Program-made: the position numbers and the translations under genes
Part shown: positions 18,170-34,380 of the stretch, in pieces
Layout: each line of letters opens with the position of its first letter
How positions within the stretch are numbered: position 1 is the first letter of the stretch
The notes under the pieces: generated by a model
What the model saw: only the letters and a program-made list of their open reading frames with translations
Told to the model about the DNA's origin: nothing
The model's database searches: none
IMG/VR virus record: IMGVR_UViG_2671180849_000019
Source of the DNA: a virus
Taxonomy: Duplodnaviria; Heunggongvirae; Uroviricota; Caudoviricetes
Length of the DNA: 34,380 nucleotides
Direction: 5' to 3' (one strand)

Positions 18170-19936
18170 ATGAACACCACACTGACACCCGCAGATCTCG
18201 ATCCCCGTCGGCAGGCCATGCTGCTGTACTTTCAGGGATACCGCGTAGCCCGCATTGCTGAAATGCTGGGCGAGAAAGTTGCAACCGTTCACAGCTGGAA
18301 AAAACGCGACAAGTGGGGTGACTATGGGCCGCTGGATCAGATGCAGCTCACCACCGCCGCACGCTACTGCCAGCTCATTATGAAGGAGCACAAAGAAGGG
18401 AAAGATTTCAAAGAAATTGACCTGCTGGCGCGCCAGTCGGAGCGCCACGCGCGCATCGGCAAGTTTAACAATGGCGGTAACGAAGCCGACTTAAACCCTA
18501 ACGTCGCCAACCGCAACAAAGGCCCGCGCCGTCAGCCGGAAAAGAACGTTTTCACCGATGAACAAATTGAGAAGCTGGAAGAAATCTTCCACTCCTCCAT
18601 GTTCAACTACCAGCGCCACTGGTGGGAAGCCGGAAAAACCAACCGCATCCGCAACCTGCTGAAGTCACGCCAGATCGGCGCGACCTTTTACTTTGCCCGT
18701 GAAGCCCTGATTGACGCCCTGCTGACCGGACGTAACCAGATTTTCCTTTCCGCCAGTAAGGCACAGGCCCACGTCTTTAAGCAGTACATCATCGACTTCG
18801 CCAAAGAAGTGGAGGTGGAGCTGAAAGGCGATCCGATGGTGCTTCCTAACGGGGCCACGCTTTACTTCCTCGGCACCAATGCCCGCACAGCCCAGAGTTA
18901 TCACGGTAACCTGTATCTGGATGAATATTTCTGGATACCGAAATTCCAGGAGCTGCGCAAAGTGGCTTCCGGTATGGCTATTCACAAAAAATGGCGACAA
19001 ACCTATTTTTCCACGCCATCCAGCCTGACCCACAGTGCTTATCCGTTCTGGTCCGGTGCGCTGTTCAACCGTGGACGCAACAAAGCCGACAAGGTGGACA
19101 TCGACCTGTCCCACAGCAATCTGGCCCCCGGCCTGCTGTGCGCAGACGGGCAGTACCGCCAGATAGTCACTGTGGAAGATGCGGTGCGCGGCGGCTGCAA
19201 CTTGTTCGACCTCGACCAGTTACGCATGGAATACAGCCCGGATGAATACCAGAACCTGCTGATGTGTGAGTTCGTGGACGATCTCGCGTCCGTGTTCCCG
19301 CTCAGCGAGCTGCAGGGGTGCATGGTGGACAGCTGGGAAGTCTGGACCGACTTTCATGCACTGGCGCTGCGCCCGTTTGGCTGGCGCGAAGTGTGGATCG
19401 GTTATGACCCGGCAAAAGGTACGCAAAACGGCGACAGCGCCGGGTGCGTGGTGGTGGCACCGCCAGCCGTGCCGGGCGGTAAGTTCCGCATTCTTGAGCG
19501 TCACCAGTGGCGCGGAATGGACTTCCGCGCCCAGGCTGACGCCATCAAAAAACTGACCGAGCAGTACAACGTGACCTATATCGGCATTGACTCGACAGGC
19601 GTCGGTCACGGGGTTTATGAGAACGTGAAAGCGTTCTTTCCTGCCGTCCGGGAGTTTGTCTACAACCCCAACGTTAAAAACGCTCTGGTACTCAAGGCCT
19701 ACGACATTATCAGCCACCGCCGTCTGGAGTTTGACGCCGGACACACCGACATAGCGCAGTCATTTATGGCAATCCGTCGCGCCACCACCGCCAGTGGCAA
19801 CCGCCCGACCTATGAAGCCAGCCGCAGCGAAGAAGCCAGCCACGCCGATCTGGCCTGGGCAACAATGCACGCACTGTTTAACGAACCACTGCAAGGCGAG
19901 TCCGCCAATACCAGTAATATTGTGGAGATTTTTTGA
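18170..19936 (+). CDS. P: terminase ATPase (large) subunit gpP
   Basis: 588-aa ORF, divergent from O and followed by Q, as in P2. Confidence 0.9.
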   Translation: MNTTLTPADLDPRRQAMLLYFQGYRVARIAEMLGEKVATVHSWKKRDKWGDYGPLDQMQLTTAARYCQLIMKEHKEGKDFKEIDLLARQSERHARIGKFNNGGNEADLNPNVANRNKGPRRQPEKNVFTDEQIEKLEEIFHSSMFNYQRHWWEAGKTNRIRNLLKSRQIGATFYFAREALIDALLTGRNQIFLSASKAQAHVFKQYIIDFAKEVEVELKGDPMVLPNGATLYFLGTNARTAQSYHGNLYLDEYFWIPKFQELRKVASGMAIHKKWRQTYFSTPSSLTHSAYPFWSGALFNRGRNKADKVDIDLSHSNLAPGLLCADGQYRQIVTVEDAVRGGCNLFDLDQLRMEYSPDEYQNLLMCEFVDDLASVFPLSELQGCMVDSWEVWTDFHALALRPFGWREVWIGYDPAKGTQNGDSAGCVVVAPPAVPGGKFRILERHQWRGMDFRAQADAIKKLTEQYNVTYIGIDSTGVGHGVYENVKAFFPAVREFVYNPNVKNALVLKAYDIISHRRLEFDAGHTDIAQSFMAIRRATTASGNRPTYEASRSEEASHADLAWATMHALFNEPLQGESANTSNIVEIF

Positions 19937-20973
19937 TGGGAAAGCGTAAGAAAAACCGCGCAGCGGCGATGAATCAGATCCAGCATAAAAGCCAGACTTC
20001 AGCCGAAGCATTCAGCTTCGGCGATCCCGTTCCTGTTCTGGACCGCCGCGAATTACTGGACTATGTGGAATGCGTACAGATGGACCGCTGGTATGAGCCA
20101 CCAGTGAGTTTCGACGGACTGGCGCGAACCTTCCGCGCCGCCGTGCATCATAGCTCACCGATTGCGGTGAAATGCAACATTCTGACCAGCACCTACATCC
20201 CTCACCCGCTGCTCAGCCAGCAGGCTTTTTCACGTTTTGTGCAGGACTATCTGGTATTTGGTAACGCCTACCTGGAGAAACGCACGAACCGGTTCGGTGA
20301 AATTATCGCCCTTGAGCCTGCGCTGGCAAAATACACCCGACGCGGGTTAGACCTGGATACCTACTGGTTTGTGCAATACGGTATGACAACCCAGCCGTAT
20401 CAGTTCACGAAAGGCAGCATCTTTCATCTGATGGAACCCGATATCAACCAGGAGATCTACGGCCTGCCCGGCTATCTTTCTGCCATTCCGTCAGCCCTGC
20501 TCAACGAGTCCGCCACGCTGTTCCGACGCAAATATTATATTAATGGCAGCCATGCAGGATTCATAATGTACATGACCGATGCCGCTCAGAACCAGGAGGA
20601 TGTGAACAACCTCCGCAACGCGATGAAAAGCGCCAAAGGTCCGGGCAACTTCCGCAACCTGTTTATGTACTCGCCTAACGGCAAAAAGGACGGGCTTCAG
20701 ATCATCCCGCTGTCAGAAGTGGCGGCAAAGGATGAGTTTCTGAACATCAAGAACGTAAGCCGGGACGACATGATGGCGGCGCATCGTGTGCCGCCGCAAA
20801 TGATGGGGATTATGCCGAATAATGTTGGGGGGTTTGGGGATGTGGAGAAGGCAAGCCGTGTATTCGTCCGAAATGAGCTAATGCCACTACAAAAGCGATT
20901 ACAGGAGATGAATGATTGGCTTGGCAAGGAGGCGATACAGTTTAATACCTACTCGCTAGATATAGTCCCATAA
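19933..20973 (+). CDS. Q: portal (capsid portal vertex) protein gpQ
   Basis: 346-aa ORF overlapping the P stop; size and position as P2 Q. Confidence 0.9.
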   Translation: MMGKRKKNRAAAMNQIQHKSQTSAEAFSFGDPVPVLDRRELLDYVECVQMDRWYEPPVSFDGLARTFRAAVHHSSPIAVKCNILTSTYIPHPLLSQQAFSRFVQDYLVFGNAYLEKRTNRFGEIIALEPALAKYTRRGLDLDTYWFVQYGMTTQPYQFTKGSIFHLMEPDINQEIYGLPGYLSAIPSALLNESATLFRRKYYINGSHAGFIMYMTDAAQNQEDVNNLRNAMKSAKGPGNFRNLFMYSPNGKKDGLQIIPLSEVAAKDEFLNIKNVSRDDMMAAHRVPPQMMGIMPNNVGGFGDVEKASRVFVRNELMPLQKRLQEMNDWLGKEAIQFNTYSLDIVP

Positions 20974-20976
20974 TAA

Positions 20977-21002
20977 GAAAAGCCACCGTTTGGTGGCTTT
21001 TC
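20977..21002. terminator. bidirectional intrinsic terminator hairpin between convergent Q and the HIRAN-domain gene
   Basis: GAAAAGCCACC-gttt-GGTGGCTTTTC: GC-rich stem flanked by A-run and T-run on either side. Confidence 0.6.
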
Positions 21003-21007
21003 TTCAT

Positions 21008-21748
21008 TTACTCAATAGGTTCAAACTCATCCTGAGGAATCAGCGTCGATTGACAGGCTTGGCTTAGTACTCCTGATAATTTACATAATAACCGATAGTT
21101 ATGAGGAGCATCATCGCTAATCTTTTCGACCGTTAAAGTGATTGATTTTGGATCATCCAATAACATCTTCTTGATATCATTACTTAAATACCTAGGGCAG
21201 TAACCAACGATTTCAGCTGGTTTATCTGCACGAACGACAACAGCATCCCCATCGTATTCATTTTGAAGATCCAAGCAAAGACGCAAAATTTGCCCCGGTT
21301 TCAATTCAGATACACGAGCATTAGCTAAGCTATTTAAGTAACCAAGTCCATGTAAGAAGAAAAAATGCTCAAAGTTACCATCAGAATCAACATCAATTTT
21401 TTTGAAAATCTGCAGCTGATCAGTGCTTCGTAAGCCTCCCGAGCGAGCAAGAATATCGATAGGATTTACCTTATCTTCTTCAAATCCAAGCCATTTAATG
21501 AAACTCGGATACTCTGGACGTCTCGGTGATAAAAGGCGATTTTTAAAAAGAGGAAACAATTCTTCCGAAACATAAGTTTCACGAACATCACTCATGCCGC
21601 TAAACTTTGTAAATTTAGTAGATTTGAGAGCACCTTTGGTATACCTGAAAACATACCCCGATTTGCGCTCTTGCAAGTTACCAACAACATGCCAGTCTCT
21701 GGTATCTGGTGCCTGCCATGCGACGTAAACGGAGTTTGTATTAGTCAT
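21008..21748 (-). CDS. hypothetical protein with C-terminal HIRAN-like domain (predicted DNA 3'-end binding); second gene of the kinase cassette
   Basis: 246-aa ORF whose ATG overlaps the kinase stop (ATGA). Segment LRLCLDLQNEYDGDAVVVRADKPAEIVGYCPRYL fits the HIRAN signature as recalled. Confidence 0.6.
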   Translation of the reverse strand: MTNTNSVYVAWQAPDTRDWHVVGNLQERKSGYVFRYTKGALKSTKFTKFSGMSDVRETYVSEELFPLFKNRLLSPRRPEYPSFIKWLGFEEDKVNPIDILARSGGLRSTDQLQIFKKIDVDSDGNFEHFFFLHGLGYLNSLANARVSELKPGQILRLCLDLQNEYDGDAVVVRADKPAEIVGYCPRYLSNDIKKMLLDDPKSITLTVEKISDDAPHNYRLLCKLSGVLSQACQSTLIPQDEFEPIE

Positions 21749-22659
21749 TCTAGTAACCTTCTGCGATTTTCCATTACCATTAACGTTGCAAATCTACGTG
21801 CACTGTCGGATATACACGATGAAGGCACTTGGTTAAACACATCTGTAATGGAATCTTCTGTTAAAACGCTCAACTTACCTAACCAATGGTCGCGAGCGGC
21901 AACTCTCCCTTCAACTGCATGTTGAAATGCTTCAACGGTCAGCAAGGGCTTTTTATCAGTTTTTGCTTTGAATAGCTCAGAGCGAGCTTTTCTTACAAAA
22001 CATGGGATTTGTCGATTTTTATCTTTAGTATTAAGCCGTTCGTTACGCTCATCATCTAACATCTCCCTTCCTAAACTAGCGGCATGATCGTATGTTGGAC
22101 ACAAAAACTGCTCACCAGTTTCATTGTTAAGCATGATCGCCCAATTTTCATGATGGCGATCTTGATTACTCACAAGTGCATCGAGCATCAAATATCCACA
22201 AAATACATCTGCTGCATTTAGCCCGGTTAGATCATATACACTCGGAGGAGGCTTGATAGATTCCCTATCTAAACAACCCAATACCCTTGTGACAGTGTGT
22301 TCTCTGACCCTTACCGGCTTTTCCCCGGCTTGTAAAGGCCCAGGATAATCGAATGTCGAACTGTGAAGCACTTCATTTCCCATTACCATCCGGAAACCAG
22401 ATGGAATGATATTCTGAGTCACCACACCGAATCGACCATTGTATCGCGCCAAATCATAGCTAGCATGTGGAATGTTAAGCAAATGACATAACTCAGCAGC
22501 ACACTTTTCAGACCAATGCTCGCCAGTACCTGGCCTAGAGTACTTAAACAACTGCAAATTTACAGTGTCATCGGAGAAATAGAACCAAAACTTCTCTTTG
22601 GTTCCTAACTGTTCAAGATCGTTAGCTACGGGGCTAAGCTCTACCAATTGGTATGGCAT
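21745..22659 (-). CDS. HipA-like Ser/Thr kinase (short, HipT-sized, lacking the HipA N-terminal subdomain)
   Basis: Catalytic-loop motif LVSNQDRHHENWAIM and downstream LCPTYDHAASLG match the HipA D-x-H-x-x-N and P-x-YD motifs; Gly/Lys-rich N-terminal segment QLGTKEKFWFYF. Confidence 0.7.
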   Translation of the reverse strand: MPYQLVELSPVANDLEQLGTKEKFWFYFSDDTVNLQLFKYSRPGTGEHWSEKCAAELCHLLNIPHASYDLARYNGRFGVVTQNIIPSGFRMVMGNEVLHSSTFDYPGPLQAGEKPVRVREHTVTRVLGCLDRESIKPPPSVYDLTGLNAADVFCGYLMLDALVSNQDRHHENWAIMLNNETGEQFLCPTYDHAASLGREMLDDERNERLNTKDKNRQIPCFVRKARSELFKAKTDKKPLLTVEAFQHAVEGRVAARDHWLGKLSVLTEDSITDVFNQVPSSCISDSARRFATLMVMENRRRLLE

Positions 22660-22818
22660 CTGACATCCCTGTTTAGCGGATTATGAATAAGTTAGGTTCC
22701 ATTTTATCCAAACATTGTCAAATACTCTAAGATTTATTAGATGATAGAGCGATACTGTATGCATGTCCAGCAATCAAATCAATATATAACTCTTATATGA
22801 CTTAGCGCGCGCTCGTAT

Positions 22819-22830
22819 CCCCGCCACGCC
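22819..22830 (-). other. possible cos-related sequence (GGCGTGGCGGGG on the minus strand)
   Basis: 12-nt exact match to the 5' part of the 186 cohesive end as I recall it (GGCGTGGCGGGGAAAGCAT); the remaining 7 nt do not match. Confidence 0.25.
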
Positions 22831-22852
22831 TGCCCGCTTTATGTAGTGGTTT

Positions 22853-22954
22853 TCATGCACCTGCATGACATAAGCAAAAGCACGCCAGTTCTGGCTGACT
22901 TCAGCAAAAACGATCCTCAAACGATCATGCGATCTCATGCGTCATAGTCATGCG
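22853..22954. promoter_or_regulatory. array of TCATGC(A/G) motifs (one 16-bp palindrome plus three direct repeats) overlapping a cluster of three GATC sites
   Basis: Palindrome TCATGCAccTGCATGA at 22853-22868; TCATGCG at 22925, 22935 and 22948; GATC at 22912, 22923 and 22931, all in the intergenic region between the two divergent cargo operons. Confidence 0.3.
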
Positions 22955-23254
22955 CTGCCAAGGGAAGCGTAAATCCGTATCTGAATGACTGCTGAAAAGC
23001 GAATCATACGGGTTTACAAAGATGAAAGTTCGCTGTGAGCGAGAAGCGAACCTTGCAACTTTGTTGGCACAGTTTTAACACCAATTTTTTGAGGATAGCT
23101 AGAAAACTTGTGGCATAAAGGATCAGTTTCCCGATCGAACTTTTTATCAAGAAGGGCTCATAGCAATCGCCAGAAGAAGTGATGTTAAAGTATTGAGCTC
23201 GGCGTTAAGATTAAATAAATTACAGACTAATCCAATGTTTTGTGGAAGGATAAG

Positions 23255-24298
23255 ATGGCAGTCAAGCGCGCATACTACGGTAACGATAGTGACCGAGACT
23301 ACTTAGAGCGGATATTTCAGTCAGCTAACATTAACTTTCTCATCGGATCAGGTGCATCCCTCCCAGCGATTAAAGTACTGGGGACAATCGAAACGGATCT
23401 TCAGCAGCTTATTAATGATGAACAGGAAGATGAATACTTAAGGATGGCAGCTGACTTTTTGTCAGATGTTTGGCTACCTCATGAATGCATGTTGAAGCGC
23501 GGCTACGGCACCCCCTTCGCACCTCAGGTGATCACCGATTTGGAATGTACCCGTGCAAATTATGATGCATTTATGTCTTCACTGGAAAAGATACTGACCC
23601 GCCGCCGAACTGGCCTACTTCCGAGGCGTATTAACGTTTTTACAACTAATTATGATTTATTCATCGAAGAAGCTGCCACACGTAATAACAATATTCTTTT
23701 TAATGATGGATTCAATAGAAGAGCAAGTATTTTGGGAGATGCGGAATTTGATGCGGGTAGCTTTAATCATTCTGTAAGTGCAACCGGAAATCTGTATAAT
23801 TATAAAGTTGAGCTTCCTACTGTTAACCTTATAAAACTTCATGGTTCGCTCTCTTGGCAGCATTCTAAAGGGAAAATCATTTATCGTATTGCAGATATTA
23901 AGCCGCTTGACTTTCCCACCCTAGCCGAAATGAAAGGATGGGTACTTGCTCATGCACTTATTCTTCCACGTAAGGAGAAGTTTAAAGAGACTCTACTACA
24001 GAACGTTTATTATGATTTACTGAGAACCTATTCCAACGAGCTTGATAAAGAAGCAACTTTACTAATTGTCTTTGGGTTCTCGTTTGCTGATGAGCACATT
24101 GAAACGATAACTAAAAAAGCCCTGCGCAACGCCACCCTGAAGCTACTGATCTTTGCTTTCGATGAGGCCAGTGTTAACGGCTTTATGGAGAAATTTCGGG
24201 ATTACTCAAACGTAGAGATTATTTATCGGCCGGGAAGAAATGTTGATTTTCCGGTAATGAATAACATTATCACGTGCTATCTGGGAGGCTCGAGATGA
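23255..24298 (+). CDS. SIR2-family NAD+-binding protein (defence-associated; SIR2 component of a SIR2-HerA pair)
   Basis: Motifs NFLIGSGASLP (Gly-rich NAD loop), VFTTNYDLFIE and LIKLHGSL (catalytic His). Start taken at ATG 23255 after GGAAGGA; the ORF track starts at TTG 23240. Confidence 0.85.
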   Translation: MAVKRAYYGNDSDRDYLERIFQSANINFLIGSGASLPAIKVLGTIETDLQQLINDEQEDEYLRMAADFLSDVWLPHECMLKRGYGTPFAPQVITDLECTRANYDAFMSSLEKILTRRRTGLLPRRINVFTTNYDLFIEEAATRNNNILFNDGFNRRASILGDAEFDAGSFNHSVSATGNLYNYKVELPTVNLIKLHGSLSWQHSKGKIIYRIADIKPLDFPTLAEMKGWVLAHALILPRKEKFKETLLQNVYYDLLRTYSNELDKEATLLIVFGFSFADEHIETITKKALRNATLKLLIFAFDEASVNGFMEKFRDYSNVEIIYRPGRNVDFPVMNNIITCYLGGSR

Positions 24299-26154
24299 GC
24301 AGGCATTTTACTGAAGAGGAAGCGGTGCTCCGTATAGGCGAAGTCTGTGAGGTTTCTGGACGCGCTGTGACAATTTTGGTCGATAAAAACAAAAATCTCA
24401 GTGACTTGTTTTATCAGGGAAAAGTTCTAAGAAATGTATCAGTGGGTAGCTTCATTGAGATCAAAAAAGGTTTCATGAGCCTGATCGGCAAGGTTGAAGC
24501 GGAACGAATCATTGAGGAAAAACATCTCGCTGGGAGCGGCAGTGATGCCTGGCGATATCGGCGATACCTGACCTCTACTCTTACGGGTTACATTGATCGT
24601 ACTGGTTGCTTCATTGGTGGTTCGCGTGAACTACCTCTCATCGGCAATGAAGTCTTCGTGGTAACTGAAGAGATGATACAAACGGTTCATCAGATAGCTA
24701 ATGCAGACGAAACTGTAATGAGGTTTACTCGTACAGATCTTGAAGATATTGAAATTGCACTACCAATCAATGGTCTTATTAATTCCCACATTGCCATTTT
24801 CGGTAATACAGGCAGCGGAAAGTCAAATACCCTAGCCGCGCTATACAAAGCAGGTATTGCCCAAGTTAAACATATTCTCGGCAACCACTTTAGTGAAAGA
24901 TGCAAATTTATTCTATTCGACTTTAATGGAGAATATACTGCCCCACGCTGTATTACTGACGAGAAGACGGTTTATAATCTCAACACGCACCATGCAAATG
25001 GTGACAAACTTCCTCTACCCAGAGAGGTTCTACTTGAGCATGATATGCTCTCAGTTCTAACCGATGCAACAGACAAAACACAGAAACCTTTCCTGAAGAG
25101 AGTTCTTGAGTTTCGCAAGAAAGTGATGACTGCTGATAATCCTCTTGAGTTTATGCGCAATATCCTGAAGAAAAAAGTCAGACAAAATCTCTTTAGTAGC
25201 GACAAACCCAAATGCGATACTATAAATCAGTTTCTTAGCCCAATTTTCAAAGATGACCCAGAACTTATATCTGATCTTGAGTATCATTCAACTGCATATA
25301 AATGGAAATTGAGGGGTGGTAGTATTTTCAATACAGAAGCTGATACTGAGCGCTCCTATCTATTCAGTCTTGCAAGCAATTTTTTATTTAAAACTGATAT
25401 GATTGAAGAACTGTTGGACTTTATGTACTTACAGTTAATACAGGAATATTTATCTAACAAGTCTAACCCTGAACATATTTCACCAGTTATAAATAGAATG
25501 AGTGCTAACCGTAAAGATATAGCCAAAATATTTGATACTTCCGGACAGTCTGACTTTTGGGGTGAACATAATTTCACGGTTGTGAATCTAAATATGGTTA
25601 ATATAACCATGAAAAAAACGCTTCCTCTTTTGATAGCCAAGTGGGCTTACAATATGAAGAAAATGTCTACAGAGAAATCTACACTGCACATCATTATAGA
25701 TGAAGCCCACAATATTTTGTCTAATACTTCTTTTCGGGAAACGGAAAGTTGGAGAGATTATCGTCTGGAAACTTTTGAGGAAATCATAAAGGAGGGGAGA
25801 AAATTTGGAGTTTTTATCACAATTTCCAGTCAACGCCCTAATGATATATCGTCGACAATCATATCCCAAGCACACAATTATTTTATTCATCGCCTTATTA
25901 ATCAGAATGATCTGTACGCAATTGAAAAATCAGTATCATATATAGATCGACTGACTGAAGAGTCGATTCCAACGCTATCTACAGGAACCTGTATTTTTAG
26001 TGGTATCGTCTGCCCCATGCCGCTCAAATTAAGGGTAGCTGAACTTCCAATTGAAGAAAAACCTAAGAGTAATACTATTTCCTTCAACGATTTAATACCT
26101 GAGAGGCTGGGAGAGGATGACCAGAGCGACTACGTAATAACCAGCCCTCACTAA
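24295..26154 (+). CDS. HerA/FtsK-like ATPase (HerA component of a SIR2-HerA defence pair)
   Basis: Walker A FGNTGSGKSNT and Walker B LHIIIDEAHNI; ATG overlaps the SIR2 stop (ATGA) with a GGGAGG RBS. Confidence 0.85.
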   Translation: MSRHFTEEEAVLRIGEVCEVSGRAVTILVDKNKNLSDLFYQGKVLRNVSVGSFIEIKKGFMSLIGKVEAERIIEEKHLAGSGSDAWRYRRYLTSTLTGYIDRTGCFIGGSRELPLIGNEVFVVTEEMIQTVHQIANADETVMRFTRTDLEDIEIALPINGLINSHIAIFGNTGSGKSNTLAALYKAGIAQVKHILGNHFSERCKFILFDFNGEYTAPRCITDEKTVYNLNTHHANGDKLPLPREVLLEHDMLSVLTDATDKTQKPFLKRVLEFRKKVMTADNPLEFMRNILKKKVRQNLFSSDKPKCDTINQFLSPIFKDDPELISDLEYHSTAYKWKLRGGSIFNTEADTERSYLFSLASNFLFKTDMIEELLDFMYLQLIQEYLSNKSNPEHISPVINRMSANRKDIAKIFDTSGQSDFWGEHNFTVVNLNMVNITMKKTLPLLIAKWAYNMKKMSTEKSTLHIIIDEAHNILSNTSFRETESWRDYRLETFEEIIKEGRKFGVFITISSQRPNDISSTIISQAHNYFIHRLINQNDLYAIEKSVSYIDRLTEESIPTLSTGTCIFSGIVCPMPLKLRVAELPIEEKPKSNTISFNDLIPERLGEDDQSDYVITSPH

Positions 26155-26298: not shown

Positions 26299-26532
26299 TT
26301 AATGCAGCCAGCTGTCGTCTTCCCACACTTTCTGCATAATTTTCATCACTTGTTTTCTTTCTTCATCCAGTTGCAGTCCGGTCAGTTCCACACCGTTAGA
26401 GCTACCTTTGCGGATACGAATTACCGTTTTGGGATACAGGGGGCGCAGATTGCGGTAAAGCTCGGATTCAAGGGCGTCCAGGGTAGACTGGCTAATCTTC
26501 TGCTCTTTATCGATCATTATTTCAATGCGCAT
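26299..26532 (-). CDS. DinI-like protein (Tum/Orf97-like SOS module)
   Basis: MRIEIMIDKEQKISQSTLDALESELYRNL...WEDDSWLH resembles E. coli DinI as recalled. Own RBS GAGGTG. The ORF track starts 24 codons upstream. Confidence 0.75.
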   Translation of the reverse strand: MRIEIMIDKEQKISQSTLDALESELYRNLRPLYPKTVIRIRKGSSNGVELTGLQLDEERKQVMKIMQKVWEDDSWLH

Positions 26533-26542
26533 AAAAGTCACC

Positions 26543-26731
26543 TCAACTGATGACATCCATTGAGCGGTTGTATTCGTGGGTTCTGATTTTTGCCATGAGT
26601 TCATCAGTCAATTCAGAAACCCACTGCAGAGCCAGCCCCTTCTCTTCATCACTACACTCACTAGCCGCTACAAGCTTAAGAAAAAAATCAATGCGCTGGA
26701 GCTTCAAAGACTCCAAAAAATAGTCCTGCAT
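26543..26731 (-). CDS. small hypothetical protein, first gene of the LexA-boxed operon
   Basis: 62-aa ORF with AGGAGG RBS, 43 bp downstream of a consensus LexA box; its stop overlaps the RBS of the DinI-like gene. Confidence 0.5.
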   Translation of the reverse strand: MQDYFLESLKLQRIDFFLKLVAASECSDEEKGLALQWVSELTDELMAKIRTHEYNRSMDVIS

Positions 26732-26773
26732 CTTTCCTCCTATGACACCAAAGCGATACTGTATACATAACCA

Positions 26774-26789
26774 CTGTTTATATTTACAG
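26774..26789 (-). promoter_or_regulatory. LexA operator (SOS box), CTGT-N8-ACAG
   Basis: CTGTttatatttACAG with an AT-rich spacer, upstream of the small ORF and DinI-like gene; a degenerate half-site (TATACAGTA) lies nearby. Confidence 0.6.
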
Positions 26790-26883
26790 TATATAATAAT
26801 CTTACTGATGTAAAACGTTTTTTTACGTTCATCAGCCAGAAATGCCTGGTATTATTAAGAGCACGAATTGTTAACCCGCGTAA

Positions 26884-31439: not shown

Positions 31440-31958
31440 TCACAGCAAACCGAATGAAGCACCGAGGCCAGTCACGGTATCAACTGCACTCGCCATCGCA
31501 GGATTAGCCTGTAAACGGGCCTGCAATGAAACAGCAGCCAGCGCCATCAGTCGTGTTACAGAGTTAATGCTGCTGATAGCATCACGACGACCGGCACTAG
31601 TTTTTACATCACCAGATACCGCACCTGCTGCAACACGCCCGATCTCTGCAGTTGCGCTCATGACGTAATGCGGCAGTTTCTCTTTTGCTACCTCATTAAT
31701 CGGTACACATGGCAGACAATGAATCTGTGCCAGAAAACCATCTACCAACGTTGAATCTTCAGTCAGATCGGTAAGCAGCCAGATTTCTGGTGCGGTTAAT
31801 AAATGAGGTTGAGCTGGGTTCAGCTTGTTCCGCAGAATCTGCACATTCATGCCCGCACGTTCTGCCAGTTGCACCAGATTGTGGCGCAGTGTGAATGCAC
31901 GACAGGCTTCATCAAAATGTGGATGTTTGGAAACTTGGTAATCAAACATGGTTTTCAA
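31440..31958 (-). CDS. cII: CII-like transcriptional activator (phage 186 CII family)
   Basis: [19 protein letters not shown]...[21 protein letters not shown]...[24 protein letters not shown] matches 186 CII as recalled. Confidence 0.8.
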
Positions 31959-32217: not shown

Positions 32218-32362
32218 AAGGCAACATTCCTTCTAGATATGGCTTGTGGCGAGCCGTTGTTTGTCGTGATTAGTAGTGAAGGCTCCAAAAGAACACTTCT
32301 GGTTCAACTTTAAGATCGCTTTTGGAATCTGTCAACGAATTTTGGATTTCTTTGGAGGACTT

Positions 32363-32932
32363 GTGGATTTCAATAGCGGCGGTAAGAAAGCCATAGAACG
32401 TTTAGTTGAAGCATATGGGTTCGGTACCCGTCAGGCTCTATGTGATCATTTAGGTGTTTCTAAGAGCACCATGGCAACGCGCTATATGCGTGATATTTTT
32501 CCAGCAGATTGGGTAATCCAGTGCGCCCTTGAAACGGGCACCTCGCTTAATTGGCTAACAACAGGGCATGGTTCAAAGCAAGCATCAGCAAATACAAATA
32601 CTATAGAAGTAGAAAAATATTTATTGTCTGATGGAGCATTGCAGAAAGACGGTTTTTATATTTTTGATAAGGGATTTCTACCCTCTACGTTTAAAAAACC
32701 TTTTGTCATCACAGATAACAATTCTGAATTTATTTGTGATAAAGAATTTGATGATATACGTGATGGTAAATGGGTAATAAGTATTGATGGCGAAATAACT
32801 ATCCGTGACATTACTCGTTTACCCGGTGGAAGAATCTTCGTCGAGGGTGGAAACAGAGCCTTCGAATGCAAGATAGAAGACATTGAAATAATTGGTAAAA
32901 TTATAAGTTTAACAGTCAAGTATGTTAAATAG
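32363..32932 (+). CDS. cI: CI immunity repressor (186 type); start uncertain
   Basis: EAYGF...CALETGTSLNWLTTGHG and a C-terminal domain resembling 186 CI. GTG at 32363 follows GGAGGA; the ORF track extends to GTG 32276. Confidence 0.75.
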   Translation: MDFNSGGKKAIERLVEAYGFGTRQALCDHLGVSKSTMATRYMRDIFPADWVIQCALETGTSLNWLTTGHGSKQASANTNTIEVEKYLLSDGALQKDGFYIFDKGFLPSTFKKPFVITDNNSEFICDKEFDDIRDGKWVISIDGEITIRDITRLPGGRIFVEGGNRAFECKIEDIEIIGKIISLTVKYVK

Positions 32933-33139: not shown

Positions 33140-33327
33140 CTTTTGCTTTTATATCTGCGTCTAAAATAAAAATGAGCCGCAGGTTAACCGCAAAAGTTAC
33201 ATGCTCACATAGCAAAAAGAATAGCCAACTTAATTATGGCTTCAGTGAGATGTATGGTCGTAGGATTTCATACATTGACACTGGTTATACATACAGTGAA
33301 AATGCTCTCTACTGGAGGGCATTTTTT

Positions 33328-34380
33328 ATGGCAGTACGAAAACTCACCACTGGGAAATGGCTTTGCGAATGTTACCCCGCCGGACGAAGTGGGCGTCGTG
33401 TGCGTAAACAATTCGTCACCAAAGGCGAAGCACTGGCTTTTGAGCGCCACACGATGGAAGAAACCGAAGCAAAGCCCTGGCTGGGTGAATCAGTGGATCG
33501 TCGAACACTGAAAGACGTGGTTGAGCTATGGTTCAAACTACATGGTAAATCTCTGACAGCTGGGCAGCATGTCTATGACAAATTGCTGTTGATGGTTGAC
33601 GCTCTGGGCAATCCTCTTGCAACCGATCTCACCTCTAAAATGTTTGCCCACTATCGAGATAAACGCCTGACAGGCGAGATCTACTTCAGCGAGAAATGGA
33701 AGAAAGGAGCAAGCCCGGTCACCATTAACCTGGAGCAAAGCTATCTAAGTAGTGTTTTTAGCGAACTATCCCGTCTGGGCGAATGGTCGTATCCGAACCC
33801 ACTGGAGAACATGCGAAAATTCACCATCGCAGAAAAAGAGATGGCATGGCTTACCCATGAGCAGATTGTTGAATTGCTGGCTGATTGCAAACGTCAGGAC
33901 CCAATTCTGGCACTGGTAGTTAAGATATGCTTAAGCACAGGCGCACGCTGGCGTGAAGCCGTAAATCTTACCCGCTCACAGGTGACCAAATACCGAATTA
34001 CCTTTGTCAGAACGAAGGGGAAGAAAAACAGAAGCATCCCTATCAGTAAAGAGCTTTACGAAGAGATCATGGCGCTTGATGGGTTCAATTTCTTCACAGA
34101 CTGCTATTTTCAATTTTTATCCGTGATGGAAAAAACGTCTATCGTACTCCCTCGCGGTCAACTCACACACGTTCTGCGCCATACGTTTGCGGCGCACTTC
34201 ATGATGTCGGGTGGAAACATTCTGGCCTTACAAAAAATTCTCGGACACCACGATATAAAAATGACTATGCGTTACGCACATCTGGCACCGGATCATCTGG
34301 AAACGGCGCTCCGTTTCAATCCTCTGGCAACGCTGCCAAGTGGCGACAAAGTGGCGGCAGCGGTTGGCATTACCCCGTAA
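33328..34380 (+). CDS. int: tyrosine integrase (P2/186 type)
   Basis: C-terminal catalytic region with ...RHTFAAHFMMSGG...LGHHDIKMTMRYAHL (R...HxxR...Y). Start at ATG 33328 after GGAGGG; the ORF-track start at 33172 is an upstream extension. Confidence 0.9.
   Translation: MAVRKLTTGKWLCECYPAGRSGRRVRKQFVTKGEALAFERHTMEETEAKPWLGESVDRRTLKDVVELWFKLHGKSLTAGQHVYDKLLLMVDALGNPLATDLTSKMFAHYRDKRLTGEIYFSEKWKKGASPVTINLEQSYLSSVFSELSRLGEWSYPNPLENMRKFTIAEKEMAWLTHEQIVELLADCKRQDPILALVVKICLSTGARWREAVNLTRSQVTKYRITFVRTKGKKNRSIPISKELYEEIMALDGFNFFTDCYFQFLSVMEKTSIVLPRGQLTHVLRHTFAAHFMMSGGNILALQKILGHHDIKMTMRYAHLAPDHLETALRFNPLATLPSGDKVAAAVGITP

Follow-up and report, generated by a model that had tools for sequence, protein, structure and literature searches.

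What is the two-gene cassette lodged between the portal gene and cos of a 186-like prophage, and how might it serve its carrier? The preliminary description of the window, as we call the whole stretch of DNA analysed here (34,380 nucleotides), had proposed a HipA-like kinase and a HIRAN-domain protein, encoded by overlapping genes in lower-GC DNA between portal gene Q and the replication module. The list of open reading frames (ORFs) and direct reading of the letters bore out the two genes, their ATGA overlap, their motifs and their coordinates. The features of the locus are as follows.

19933–20973, plus strand: portal gene Q, neighbour of hipN
20975–21004, unstranded: bidirectional intrinsic-terminator-like hairpin with a 13-bp perfect stem, common to the convergent portal gene Q and hipN
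21008–21748, minus strand: hipN (ORF, 246 aa), with a HipS-like N-terminus (residues ~1–115) and a HIRAN C-terminus (~125–230)
21745–21748, minus strand: ATGA stop/start overlap of hipI and hipN, read directly
21745–22659, minus strand: hipI (ORF, 304 aa), HipA-superfamily Ser/Thr kinase
22666–22670, minus strand: Shine-Dalgarno-like AGGGA, 6 nt 5' of the kinase ATG, read directly
22741–22769, minus strand: sigma-70 promoter-like TGGACA-17-TATCAT (10/12), from a consensus scan
22753–22772, unstranded: LexA/SOS-box-like palindrome, on the gene strand TGCTGGACATGCATACAGTA, of the form CTG-N10-CAG, 15/20 to consensus
22805–22899, minus strand: cos region of the prophage (context, outside the module), core GGCGTGGCGGGGA at 22818–22830, aligning across the cut of the circularised phage 186 cos junction
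23240–24298, plus strand: SIR2 (PADLOC, E 6e-211)
24274–26154, plus strand: HerA (PADLOC, E 7e-267)

The two genes have 4 nt in common (...gaATGActaat), the TGA stop of the kinase overlapping the ATG of its partner, and the whole cassette measures 1.65 kb. The Shine-Dalgarno-like site is kept as (C)AGGGA in an upstream alignment of closer relatives. At the other end, the hairpin has folding energies of −20.4 and −21.0 kcal/mol on the two strands (z −6.8 and −6.5), which 0/200 shuffles equalled; it was not among the sites listed by the consensus scan. The GC content is 0.38–0.43 across 21001–23000 against 0.50–0.61 in the structural genes, in agreement with the preliminary description. Between the kinase gene and SIR2 there is no ORF of at least 60 aa, the interval containing the predicted promoter and cos; beyond HerA lie a DinI-like gene and then replication gene A.

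HipI is a HipA-superfamily protein kinase and, judged by its modelled fold and core motifs, is predicted to be active. The 304-aa protein carries SNQDRHHENW (residues 164–173) and PTYDH (188–192), comprising the catalytic loop D167-R-H-H-E-N172 and the Mg-binding D191, residues that we take to correspond to D309, N314 and D332 of HipA. Its Gly-rich loop, G19-T-K-E-K-F-W25, sits near the N-terminus (residues 19–25), and the N-subdomain-1 of HipA is missing. Among 111 distinct homologues (35–100% identity), G19–W25, K39, D167...N172 and D191-H-A are each at least 95% conserved. With an AlphaFold model of HipI (pLDDT 82.6, pTM 0.85), Foldseek gave a HipA/CtkA-type fold: the closest solved structure was CtkA (3akj, E 9e-10, TMq 0.67), and matches were also found to HipA (3dnt/3tpv, E 2e-6 to 5e-6) and HipT-type kinases (7wcf/8ezs, 2e-4 to 3e-3). 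Sequence identity between the model and the HipA structures is 10–12%. PDB searches by sequence or profile yielded CtkA alone for the kinase (E 0.0015) and only a marginal match to L. plantarum lp_0118 for HipN, so fold comparison was needed. The Pfam model HipA_C (PF07804) scored below threshold on HipI itself (20.7 bits vs a cut-off of 30.5, E 3.6e-4, residues 154–225 only), and 24/24 aligned relatives matched it at E ≤ 1 (best 3.4e-8). The HipA-like assignment is thus upheld by predicted fold, motifs and relatives, but not by the HipA_C score of HipI.

The partner assignment was confirmed by profile search. The 246-aa HipN contains LDLQNEYDGDAVVV...IVGYCPRYL, and the Pfam HIRAN model matched residues 127–228 with 51.3 bits against a cut-off of 24.7 (E 1.1e-13). 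Consistently, the HIRAN motif residues N163, D166 and A169 are at least 95% conserved in 104 distinct sequences (35–100% identity). A phmmer search with the HIRAN segment alone returned spurious integrin matches only. Fold comparison of both proteins matched HipS-HipT complex structures. The domain combination differs from that of eukaryotic HLTF/Rad5, in which HIRAN is joined to SNF2 translocases and ubiquitin ligases, whereas in HipN it is joined to a HipS-like domain of the kinase-regulator type. Homologues formed 955 clusters for HipI and 535 for HipN at E ≤ 1e-3, and such numbers exclude chance ORFs. NCBIfam holds no model for either protein, and PHROGs files both under 'unknown function'.

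The architecture is already known. The cassette is hipIN of Gerdes, Baerentsen and Brodersen (mBio 2021, PMC8262856), a purely bioinformatic study. It describes short kinases (279–321 aa) without N-subdomain-1, encoded by the first gene and followed by a HipS-like plus HIRAN partner, and we found no structural difference from it; its fourth HipI subclade, of Proteobacteria and Cyanobacteria, also fits the spread of the homologues that we surveyed. The adjacent genes match both models of the PADLOC candidate PDC-M03 over their full length (PDC-M03A on HipI, E 2.1e-122; PDC-M03B on HipN, E 3.4e-93). Rousset et al. 2022 list the pair as P2-hotspot system #20, 'HipA_C | HipA_C/HIRAN', with 150 occurrences in E. 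coli hotspots (Table S5B); its representative HipN is identical to ours, and its representative kinase shows a single substitution (G45D). Their Table S5A gives WP_001146828 plus WP_000185757 (or WP_000185756) with DarT/Macro and Mrr_cat neighbours, and a 'HIRAN-kinase' is also named in a Vibrio prophage hotspot. System #20 is a catalogue entry only and was not among the systems that they cloned and tested. The preliminary description had called the architecture uncharacterised; this does not apply to its existence in catalogues, and it still applies to experiments, as our literature search found no test of hipIN.

Comparison with better-known relatives sets hipIN apart in gene content. HipBA of E. 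coli K-12 shares superfamily and catalytic motifs with HipI. However, HipA (~440 aa) includes an N-subdomain of its own and targets GltX, and HipB, an HTH repressor, neutralises it, whereas HipI has 304 aa and a sub-threshold HipA_C match. HipBST (E. coli O127, Legionella) consists of the kinase HipT, whose target is TrpS, the antitoxin HipS and HipB; hipIN, in contrast, lacks a HipB/HTH gene, places the kinase first and has the HipS-like domain fused to HIRAN. In HipL, according to Gerdes et al. 2021 (PMC8262856), kinase, HipS-like and HIRAN domains form one chain, which hipIN splits over two. The P2-hotspot system pFR108, 'Exonuclease + HipA' (Rousset et al. 2022), encodes a fused kinase-HipS-like chain (protein 2, whose stored sequence ends before the C-terminus) downstream of a DEDD exonuclease; its kinase is 37% identical to HipI over 51 aa only, and hipIN is split where pFR108 is fused. 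As for type II toxin-antitoxin modules, the overlapping gene pair fits, but hipIN has the putative toxin first and fused relatives exist.

Is the pair a unit in its own right? Using the kinase alone as query, we retrieved 138 loci, 137 of them with downstream DNA, and in all 137 a HipN homologue lay directly 3' of the kinase on the same strand. These loci came from taxa as diverse as Enterobacterales, cyanobacteria, Acidobacteria, Planctomycetes, Clostridia and CPR. The genes overlapped by 1–17 nt in 114/137 loci (65 with the 4-nt type), were 0–15 nt apart in 17 and 117–246 nt apart in 6. No third gene recurred: the 321 neighbours made up 248 clusters, and HTH_3, the most frequent Pfam family among them, was found in 4/149 representatives. 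An obligatory third gene of the HipB-like HTH type is ruled out for the hipIN clade, none being present here and none recurrent in 98 other loci. Likewise ruled out for this clade is an obligatory DEDD exonuclease/diDNase, as in pFR108 and in actinobacterial clusters (NAR 2025), since neither the window nor any of the 142 loci examined encodes the DEDD exonuclease. When 149 neighbour proteins were scanned together with PADLOC and Pfam, no usable estimate of enrichment emerged, only a heterogeneous mixture that included some restriction-modification and housekeeping genes, phage regulators and integrases; a single Glu/Gln-tRNA-synthetase neighbour was not located by motif. A P2-type portal gene stood beside hipN in 39/137 loci, and hipIN was also found in non-P2 prophages and at chromosomal sites devoid of phage genes. 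The Nostocales copies are flanked by housekeeping genes and lie outside defence islands. Collectively, hipIN moves as a unit, with strict pairing and interchangeable flanking cargo.

In the window, hipIN occupies the interval from cos to the portal gene as accessory cargo. The P2 cos 19-mer is absent, as is the Rousset cloning-primer sequence; the prophage is 186-like (P2 family) and has a cos of the 186 type. The annotated cos of phage 186 is GGCGTGGCGGGGAAAGCAT, and the stretch 22797–22956, overlapping the cos region, is 87–93% conserved in many P2-like phages. With cos between them, hipIN lies at the left end of the packaged DNA and SIR2-HerA at the right. The neighbour across cos varies among SIR2-HerA, a 176-aa hypothetical protein and none; in the last type, ~380 bp separate the DinI-like gene from the kinase, cos included, which is too short for another gene. 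The adjoining SIR2-HerA pair of the preliminary description is therefore a true neighbour but not part of one cargo block, and a single four-gene system is ruled out by the intervening cos and by the occurrence of hipIN with other or no neighbours. The description had also placed variable anti-phage cargo at this locus of P2-like phages. Supporting this, the gpA–gpQ region is a validated hotspot of anti-phage systems (Rousset et al. 2022), and hipIN occurs there with differing neighbours. The cos-proximal P2 location is not mentioned in the accessible portion of Gerdes et al. 2021 (PMC8262856). A near-identity search of deposited phage genomes gave no match, and prophages and IMG/VR contigs were the only places where the cassette appeared.

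The upstream DNA points to a control element. A promoter scan of 20800–23400 returned one match only, and carries little weight alone because shuffles averaged 5.8 matches. The SOS-box-like palindrome, however, overlaps the predicted −35 hexamer of that promoter, 94 nt 5' of the kinase ATG. SOS boxes are of the CTGT-N8-ACAG type, and the 34-kb window contains three such LexA-type sites where a shuffle is expected to give 0.005; the best of them, at 26772–26791, lies ahead of the Tum/DinI-like operon, an arrangement shared with phage 186. An SOS box lay at 89–117 nt in 45/45 distinct upstream regions whose kinases are at least 66% identical, and at 80 nt in a further locus (L069), against a background rate of 0.016 per 250 nt. 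In the alignment of relatives, the box is the sole conserved island in otherwise diverged upstream DNA. None of the 81 upstream regions from more distant loci has the box, not even those of Vibrio, to which the same LexA consensus should presumably apply; LexA control would thus be clade-specific rather than intrinsic to hipIN. Here, hipIN is preceded by a predicted LexA-controlled promoter. The searchable literature yielded no report of SOS wiring of hipIN, and Gerdes et al. 2021 (PMC8262856) make no mention of LexA or SOS.

What would such a unit do? At a probability of roughly 45%, we favour the reading that hipIN is a self-contained, SOS-wired kinase switch that is gated by DNA ends and brings about abortive infection or dormancy. 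Translational coupling would yield HipI and HipN 1:1 for assembly into a complex, in which the HipS-like domain would supply the N-terminal piece missing from HipI and, by analogy with HipS and HipT in HipBST, hold the kinase inactive. Two control layers, LexA and HIRAN, would both read DNA distress. LexA would repress transcription through the SOS box over the −35, and RecA-activating single-stranded DNA would raise expression; HIRAN would bind free 3' ends of injected or replicating phage DNA or of broken host DNA, and end binding would change HipN so as to release or activate the kinase. HipI may then phosphorylate an essential host factor, by HipA/HipT analogy an aminoacyl-tRNA synthetase, and with translation and growth stopped the infection would be aborted or the lysogen become dormant. 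The preliminary description had treated phosphorylation of tRNA synthetases as a property of HipA-family kinases at large; it is established for HipA and HipT only, and the closest fold to HipI is that of CtkA. The specific two-tier arrangement, with LexA setting the level of the complex and the HIRAN domain of HipN sensing free 3' ends and releasing the HipA-like kinase, we regard as possible but doubtful.

The preliminary description had suggested a kinase toxin under the control of a partner that senses DNA ends, and the idea is older: Gerdes et al. 2021 (PMC8262856) proposed for hipIN and hipL that DNA-end sensing leads to kinase activation and abortive infection. We counted this independent proposal in favour of the DNA-end-gated switch, together with the domain and fold assignments, the conserved residues, the strict pairing, the lack of a recurrent third gene, the movement as a unit, the SOS box and residence in defence hotspots beside SIR2-HerA, DarT/Macro and Mrr_cat, Nostocales being the exception. 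On the other side we counted the Nostocales placement and the absence of the SOS box from distant relatives. Abortive infection may need a faster response than transcriptional induction allows, and the prophage itself generates 3' ends through rolling-circle replication and cos cutting, so that self-activation would have to be avoided or tolerated. A further point against is pFR108, which stands in the table of additional, not validated systems of Rousset et al. 2022; it weighs little, because its kinase is very distant and none of the loci examined has its exonuclease.

One alternative is an SOS-induced dormancy or addiction toxin-antitoxin module without an anti-phage role, which we consider unlikely. 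DNA damage would derepress hipIN and the kinase would arrest growth, as HipA or the SOS-induced TisB does, so that the lysogen tolerates the damage; alternatively, the prophage would be stabilised by the killing of cells that lose it. The conserved LexA-type box agrees with this, as several E. coli toxin-antitoxin loci (tisB, symE, dinJ-yafQ and yafNO) are regulated by LexA, and so do the housekeeping surroundings in Nostocales and the unvalidated status of the related pFR108. HipA kinases, moreover, are classic persistence toxins (Gerdes et al. 2021). But the conserved HIRAN motif residues of the partner would be left unexplained, and the pair is a PADLOC defence candidate; as interchangeable cargo it is enriched in other prophages and in a hotspot validated for defence. 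The fused kinase-HipS-like chains of pFR108 and HipL are unfit for addiction by a short-lived antitoxin and suggest allosteric control within a fixed 1:1 unit instead.

The same fused forms would suit a second alternative, that HipN is an obligatory targeting subunit rather than an inhibitor. The HipS-like domain would complete the HipA fold and HIRAN would bring the kinase to 3' ends, where DNA-bound proteins in replication, recombination or packaging of a competing phage would be phosphorylated, giving direct interference without host killing. The pTM of 0.84 of the HipN model suggests that its two domains pack together, and CtkA, the closest solved fold, is to our knowledge not a tRNA-synthetase kinase. 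HipS-like domains are homologous to N-subdomain-1, an integral part of HipA. Yet HipS acts as an antitoxin in the two HipS-HipT systems studied (Gerdes et al. 2021; HipS-HipT structures), and none of the HipA-family kinases is known to act on a DNA-bound substrate, which makes this alternative quite improbable. Very improbable is a function of the prophage's own, in which hipIN would come on with the SOS-triggered lytic cycle and HIRAN would recognise the phage's own ends (the gpA-nicked origin or cos), tuning host physiology or timing or excluding superinfecting relatives during induction: the operon does start ~60 bp away from cos, where the packaged DNA has its extreme left end, and its SOS box has a parallel in phage 186, where LexA controls the tum operon and orf97, a cargo gene downstream in that operon, blocks 186 infection, but the module also resides in non-P2 prophages and phage-free chromosomal sites, its flanking cargo is interchangeable, and it is dispensable, phage 186 having only ~145 bp and a terminator at the equivalent place.

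As a discovery, hipIN has been anticipated by three catalogues and by a proposal of the same mechanism; the present analysis adds the SOS box, the residue conservation, the pairing survey and the cos position. The conserved SOS box is a concrete reason why assays without SOS induction could miss a phenotype. The module is readily testable, because it is compact (1.65 kb), has its own predicted promoter and ranks 20th in frequency among the cargo systems of the E. coli P2 hotspot. Should the published hypothesis hold, free DNA 3' ends sensed through HIRAN would be a new sensing principle in bacterial immunity, HipA-family kinases would be a new class of effector, and a domain of eukaryotic replication-fork repair would be linked to prokaryotic conflict systems. 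The two-tier switch, if true, would be the first immune or dormancy system with HIRAN as its nucleic-acid sensor and a Hip kinase as its effector.

The cassette is the already known but uncharacterised candidate system hipIN, also listed as PDC-M03 and as system #20 of Rousset et al. Gerdes, Baerentsen and Brodersen (mBio 2021, PMC8262856) define hipIN as the kinase HipI plus HipN, a HipS-like and HIRAN protein, and propose that HIRAN recognises the DNA ends of invading phages, which activates the kinase and causes abortive infection; the proposal "can now be tested experimentally". The mechanism offered in the preliminary description is therefore already in print. Both of our proteins matched the PADLOC candidate PDC-M03 (E 2e-122 and 3e-93). 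"HipA_C" with "HipA_C/HIRAN" is system #20 of the E. coli P2 hotspot in Rousset et al. (Cell Host Microbe 2022, PMC9122126), where it has 150 occurrences; their Vibrio prophage hotspot table also contains a "HIRAN-kinase". HipN of the #20 representatives is identical to that of the window, the kinase differs by one residue, and the RefSeq accessions of both proteins recur in Rousset Table S5A. A NAR paper (2025) and a genome paper (2026) still term the pair predicted or candidate. Full-text literature searches found no experimental test of hipIN, in agreement with the earlier statement that no experimental characterisation of this architecture was known. The finding is real and was well described, but is not new as a discovery; the present analysis adds the HipS-like domain, strict two-gene conservation across phyla, a cos-proximal left-end slot and a conserved SOS box.

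The two coupled ORFs lie exactly at 21008-22659 as first described, and every motif quoted for the two proteins was found in them. Gene calls together with PADLOC and Pfam matches also bore out the setting beside a portal gene, SIR2-HerA and the replication module.

Features of the hipIN region and of related sites in the window
18170-20973: terminase and portal genes (ORF calls and domain scans)
20975-21004: putative bidirectional terminator, a hairpin with a perfect 13-bp stem where the convergent portal gene and hipN meet
21008..21748, minus strand: partner gene hipN, 246-aa ORF
21745..22659, minus strand: kinase gene hipI, 304-aa ORF
22753-22772: LexA-box-like palindrome TGCTGGACATGCATACAGTA, CTG-N10-CAG, 15/20 to consensus, overlapping a sigma-70-like site
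22899-22805, minus strand: 186-type cos region, aligning across the cut of the circularised phage 186 cos junction
23240-24298: SIR2 (PADLOC, E 6e-211)
24274-26154: HerA (PADLOC, E 7e-267)
26299-26604: DinI/Tum-like gene, downstream of the LexA box at 26772-26791
26543-26731: 62-aa ORF, downstream of the same box
33279-33298: third LexA-box-like site CACTGGTTATACATACAGTG, 15/20, inside ORF 33172-34380

The two genes share four bases, ATGA, read directly in the sequence, so the kinase stop codon overlaps the hipN start. The lower GC content noted earlier was measured as 0.38-0.43 across the pair vs 0.50-0.61 in the structural genes. The terminator hairpin has a Delta-G of -20.4 and -21.0 kcal/mol on the two strands (z about -6.5 on both). 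Beyond SIR2-HerA lie a DinI-like gene and replication gene A, and because Pfam scans of ORFs 31440-31958, 32276-32932 and 33172-34380 revealed CI, CII and integrase, we regard the prophage as 186-like. SIR2-HerA is a known defence system; the copy at 23240-26154 is complete, with a 25-nt overlap when both ORFs are called from their longest starts, and only part of the hipIN-bearing prophages also carry it.

The cos site falls between the kinase gene and SIR2. The annotated 186 cohesive end is 19 bases long, and the core GGCGTGGCGGGGA (22818-22830) agrees with it at 13 of them. Many P2-like phages conserve the stretch 22797-22956, which overlaps the cos region, at 87-93%. Since cos is located upstream of the kinase, hipIN occupies a cos-portal slot at the very left of the packaged DNA; since cos separates it from SIR2-HerA, which fills the right-end slot, the gpA-gpQ "hotspot" of this prophage comprises two cargo slots flanking cos. 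The single cargo region of the preliminary description thus stands as to the proximity of hipIN and SIR2-HerA but resolves into two slots. At the hipIN position, phage 186 carries no more than about 145 bp with a terminator, and its right-end slot holds orf97. In phage 500465-1, similarly to the window, a TIR-domain gene separates the portal gene from the conserved stretch, which in the window contains cos.

HipI itself scored 20.7 bits against Pfam HipA_C, under the curated cut-off of 30.5, but all 24 aligned relatives matched HipA_C at E<=1 (best 3.4e-8). Its AlphaFold model (pLDDT 82.6, pTM 0.85) matched H. pylori CtkA (E 9e-10, TM 0.67), HipA (about 1e-6) and HipT-type kinases. Conservation in 111 distinct homologues (35-100% identity) was at least 95% for each of three motifs: G19-T-K-E-K-F-W25 of the Gly-rich loop, D167-R-H-H-E-N172 of the catalytic loop, and D191-H-A. 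The relatives' matches, the predicted fold and the motifs uphold the original HipA-like call and indicate that HipI is very probably an active HipA-superfamily kinase without the HipA N-terminal subdomain. Residues 96-118 (window about 22306-22374) form the sole low-confidence stretch of the model (pLDDT 43-54); within it or at its edges are the invariant residues N95, L98, Y105, P106, R117 and H121, and this conserved loop may become ordered only when HipN or substrate is bound.

HipN consists of two domains, HipS-like and HIRAN. The HIRAN assignment held, with N163, D166 and A169 at least 95% conserved; the HipS-like domain had been missed. Of 24 HipN relatives, 20 gave a weak match (E<=1) to Couple_hipA, which models the N-terminal domain of HipA in Pfam. 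The HIRAN motif N-x-Y-D-x-x-A, to which N163, D166 and A169 belong, includes the Asp that contacts the 3'-OH in HLTF. A profile search of 1.84 billion representatives yielded 317 HipN-family clusters at E<=1e-30, and two-domain proteins of 240-270 aa made up nearly all of the best 150 matches.

Cassette DNA (at least 98.8% identity) was present in 21 of 5426 complete E. coli genomes and was not found in any deposited phage genome. The survey of P2-like prophages suggested earlier showed the pair beside a P2-family portal gene in all 21. One genome, NZ_CP042893.1 (H14), matched at two places and may carry two P2-like prophages with hipIN. Searching with the kinase alone gave 138 loci, from 58 IMG/VR viral contigs and 80 species genomes, the latter spanning Enterobacterales, Vibrio, cyanobacteria, deltaproteobacteria, Acidobacteria, Planctomycetes, Clostridia and CPR. 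A HipN homologue lay directly downstream on the same strand in 137 of the 137 loci with downstream DNA; the 138th ends at a contig edge. The genes overlapped by 1-17 nt in 114/137 loci (65 of the 4-nt type), lay 0-15 nt apart in 17 and were separated by 117-246 nt in six cyanobacterial loci (L099, L101, L102, L112, L116 and L123).

Neighbours were not conserved: 321 flanking proteins of non-P2 loci fell into 248 clusters, and the commonest Pfam family recurred in at most 4 of 149 representatives. Among P2-like prophages, the pair can have on its far side SIR2-HerA or a 176-aa hypothetical protein, and at several loci only ~380 bp including cos, too short for another gene, separate the DinI-like gene from the kinase. 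Rousset Table S5A adds DarT/Macro and Mrr_cat as neighbours. No HipB-like third gene recurred at the surveyed loci. The strict pairing, unconserved neighbours and varying far side show that hipIN is autonomous and mobile as a unit of two genes, with no HipB-like third one. Shared synteny was confined to Nostocales (L110-L142), where the pair sits between housekeeping genes at a conserved chromosomal site that is neither defence island nor prophage; there, a PfkB kinase gene converges on hipN with a 3-nt overlap, and SfsA, polysaccharide deacetylase or shikimate kinase lies upstream. In a single case among the 149 aligned neighbour proteins, a distant-locus neighbour has tRNA-synt_1c, the class I Glu/Gln-tRNA-synthetase catalytic domain (E 1e-112); a motif search did not locate its locus. 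The case draws attention since HipA targets GltX.

Rousset et al. (PMC9122126) also cloned another Hip-kinase system from the P2 hotspot, pFR108 "Exonuclease + HipA" of E. coli TA255 (Table S2B), which appears only among their additional, not validated, systems, with no phenotype reported. Its kinase is joined to a HipS-like region, though the stored sequence stops before the C-terminus, and is encoded together with a DEDD exonuclease (DUF5051); the arrangement resembles the actinobacterial diDNase-HipA-HIRAN clusters (NAR 2025) and adds another type of Hip-kinase cargo to this hotspot. The pFR108 kinase is distant from HipI (37% identity over only 51 residues), and neither the window nor any of the 142 loci examined has a homologue of the exonuclease, so this negative says little about hipIN.

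A consensus scan found a single sigma-70-like site upstream of the kinase, TGGACA-17-TATCAT (22769..22741), which the LexA-like palindrome overlaps. The 34-kb window holds three LexA-box-like sites vs 0.005 expected per shuffle. The best, CACTGTTTATATTTACAGTA (26772-26791, 17/20), precedes the DinI/Tum-like operon. In phage 186 the corresponding p95 tum operon is under SOS control and has its known LexA site there, so the window's site served as a positive control; by this parallel, the SOS response can probably induce the prophage through Tum. The site at 33279-33298 precedes the integrase domains (Int_N from residue 109) and may lie in the true int promoter region between cI and int. Upstream of kinases at least 66% identical, a LexA-like box stood 89-117 nt before the start codon in 45 of 45 distinct regions, non-P2 contexts included, often nearer to consensus (e.g. 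TACTGTATAAAGATACAGTA, 18/20); L069, a locus with a 61% identical kinase, has one at 80 nt. None was present in 81 more distant upstream regions. Background in the same loci outside the upstream windows was 0.016 boxes per 250 nt, nearly all tum-operon boxes. When diverged upstream regions were aligned (mean column identity 39%), the palindrome was the sole conserved island. Neither LexA nor SOS is mentioned in Gerdes 2021 (PMC8262856), and a literature search found no paper that connects LexA to bacterial HIRAN proteins.

Gene structure, domains, conservation, context and the SOS box are what was observed; how hipIN works beyond them is what we infer. The published DNA-end/kinase model, with two refinements, is the best-supported reading, at a confidence of 0.45. 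HipI and HipN, made in equal amounts, would assemble into the counterpart of a complete HipA bearing an added HIRAN domain, and in this complex the HipS-like domain would keep HipI inactive. In Enterobacterales, LexA would hold expression low until RecA is activated; HIRAN would then bind free 3' ends and release HipI to phosphorylate an essential factor, halting growth. By analogy only, that factor might be an aminoacyl-tRNA synthetase. Fused single-chain relatives exist, which favours allosteric control over a short-lived antitoxin. Several observations weigh against defence: the related pFR108 system is not validated, the pair sits among housekeeping genes in Nostocales, the SOS box is confined to one clade, and the prophage itself produces 3' ends. 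The strongest competitor, though we consider it unlikely, is a module for dormancy or addiction that is induced by SOS and plays no part against phages. That HipN is a targeting subunit bringing HipI to DNA-bound substrates appears more doubtful still, and a role in the prophage's own induction is the least probable.

The conserved SOS box suggests that expression of the pair depends on DNA damage, and offers a practical route to testing.
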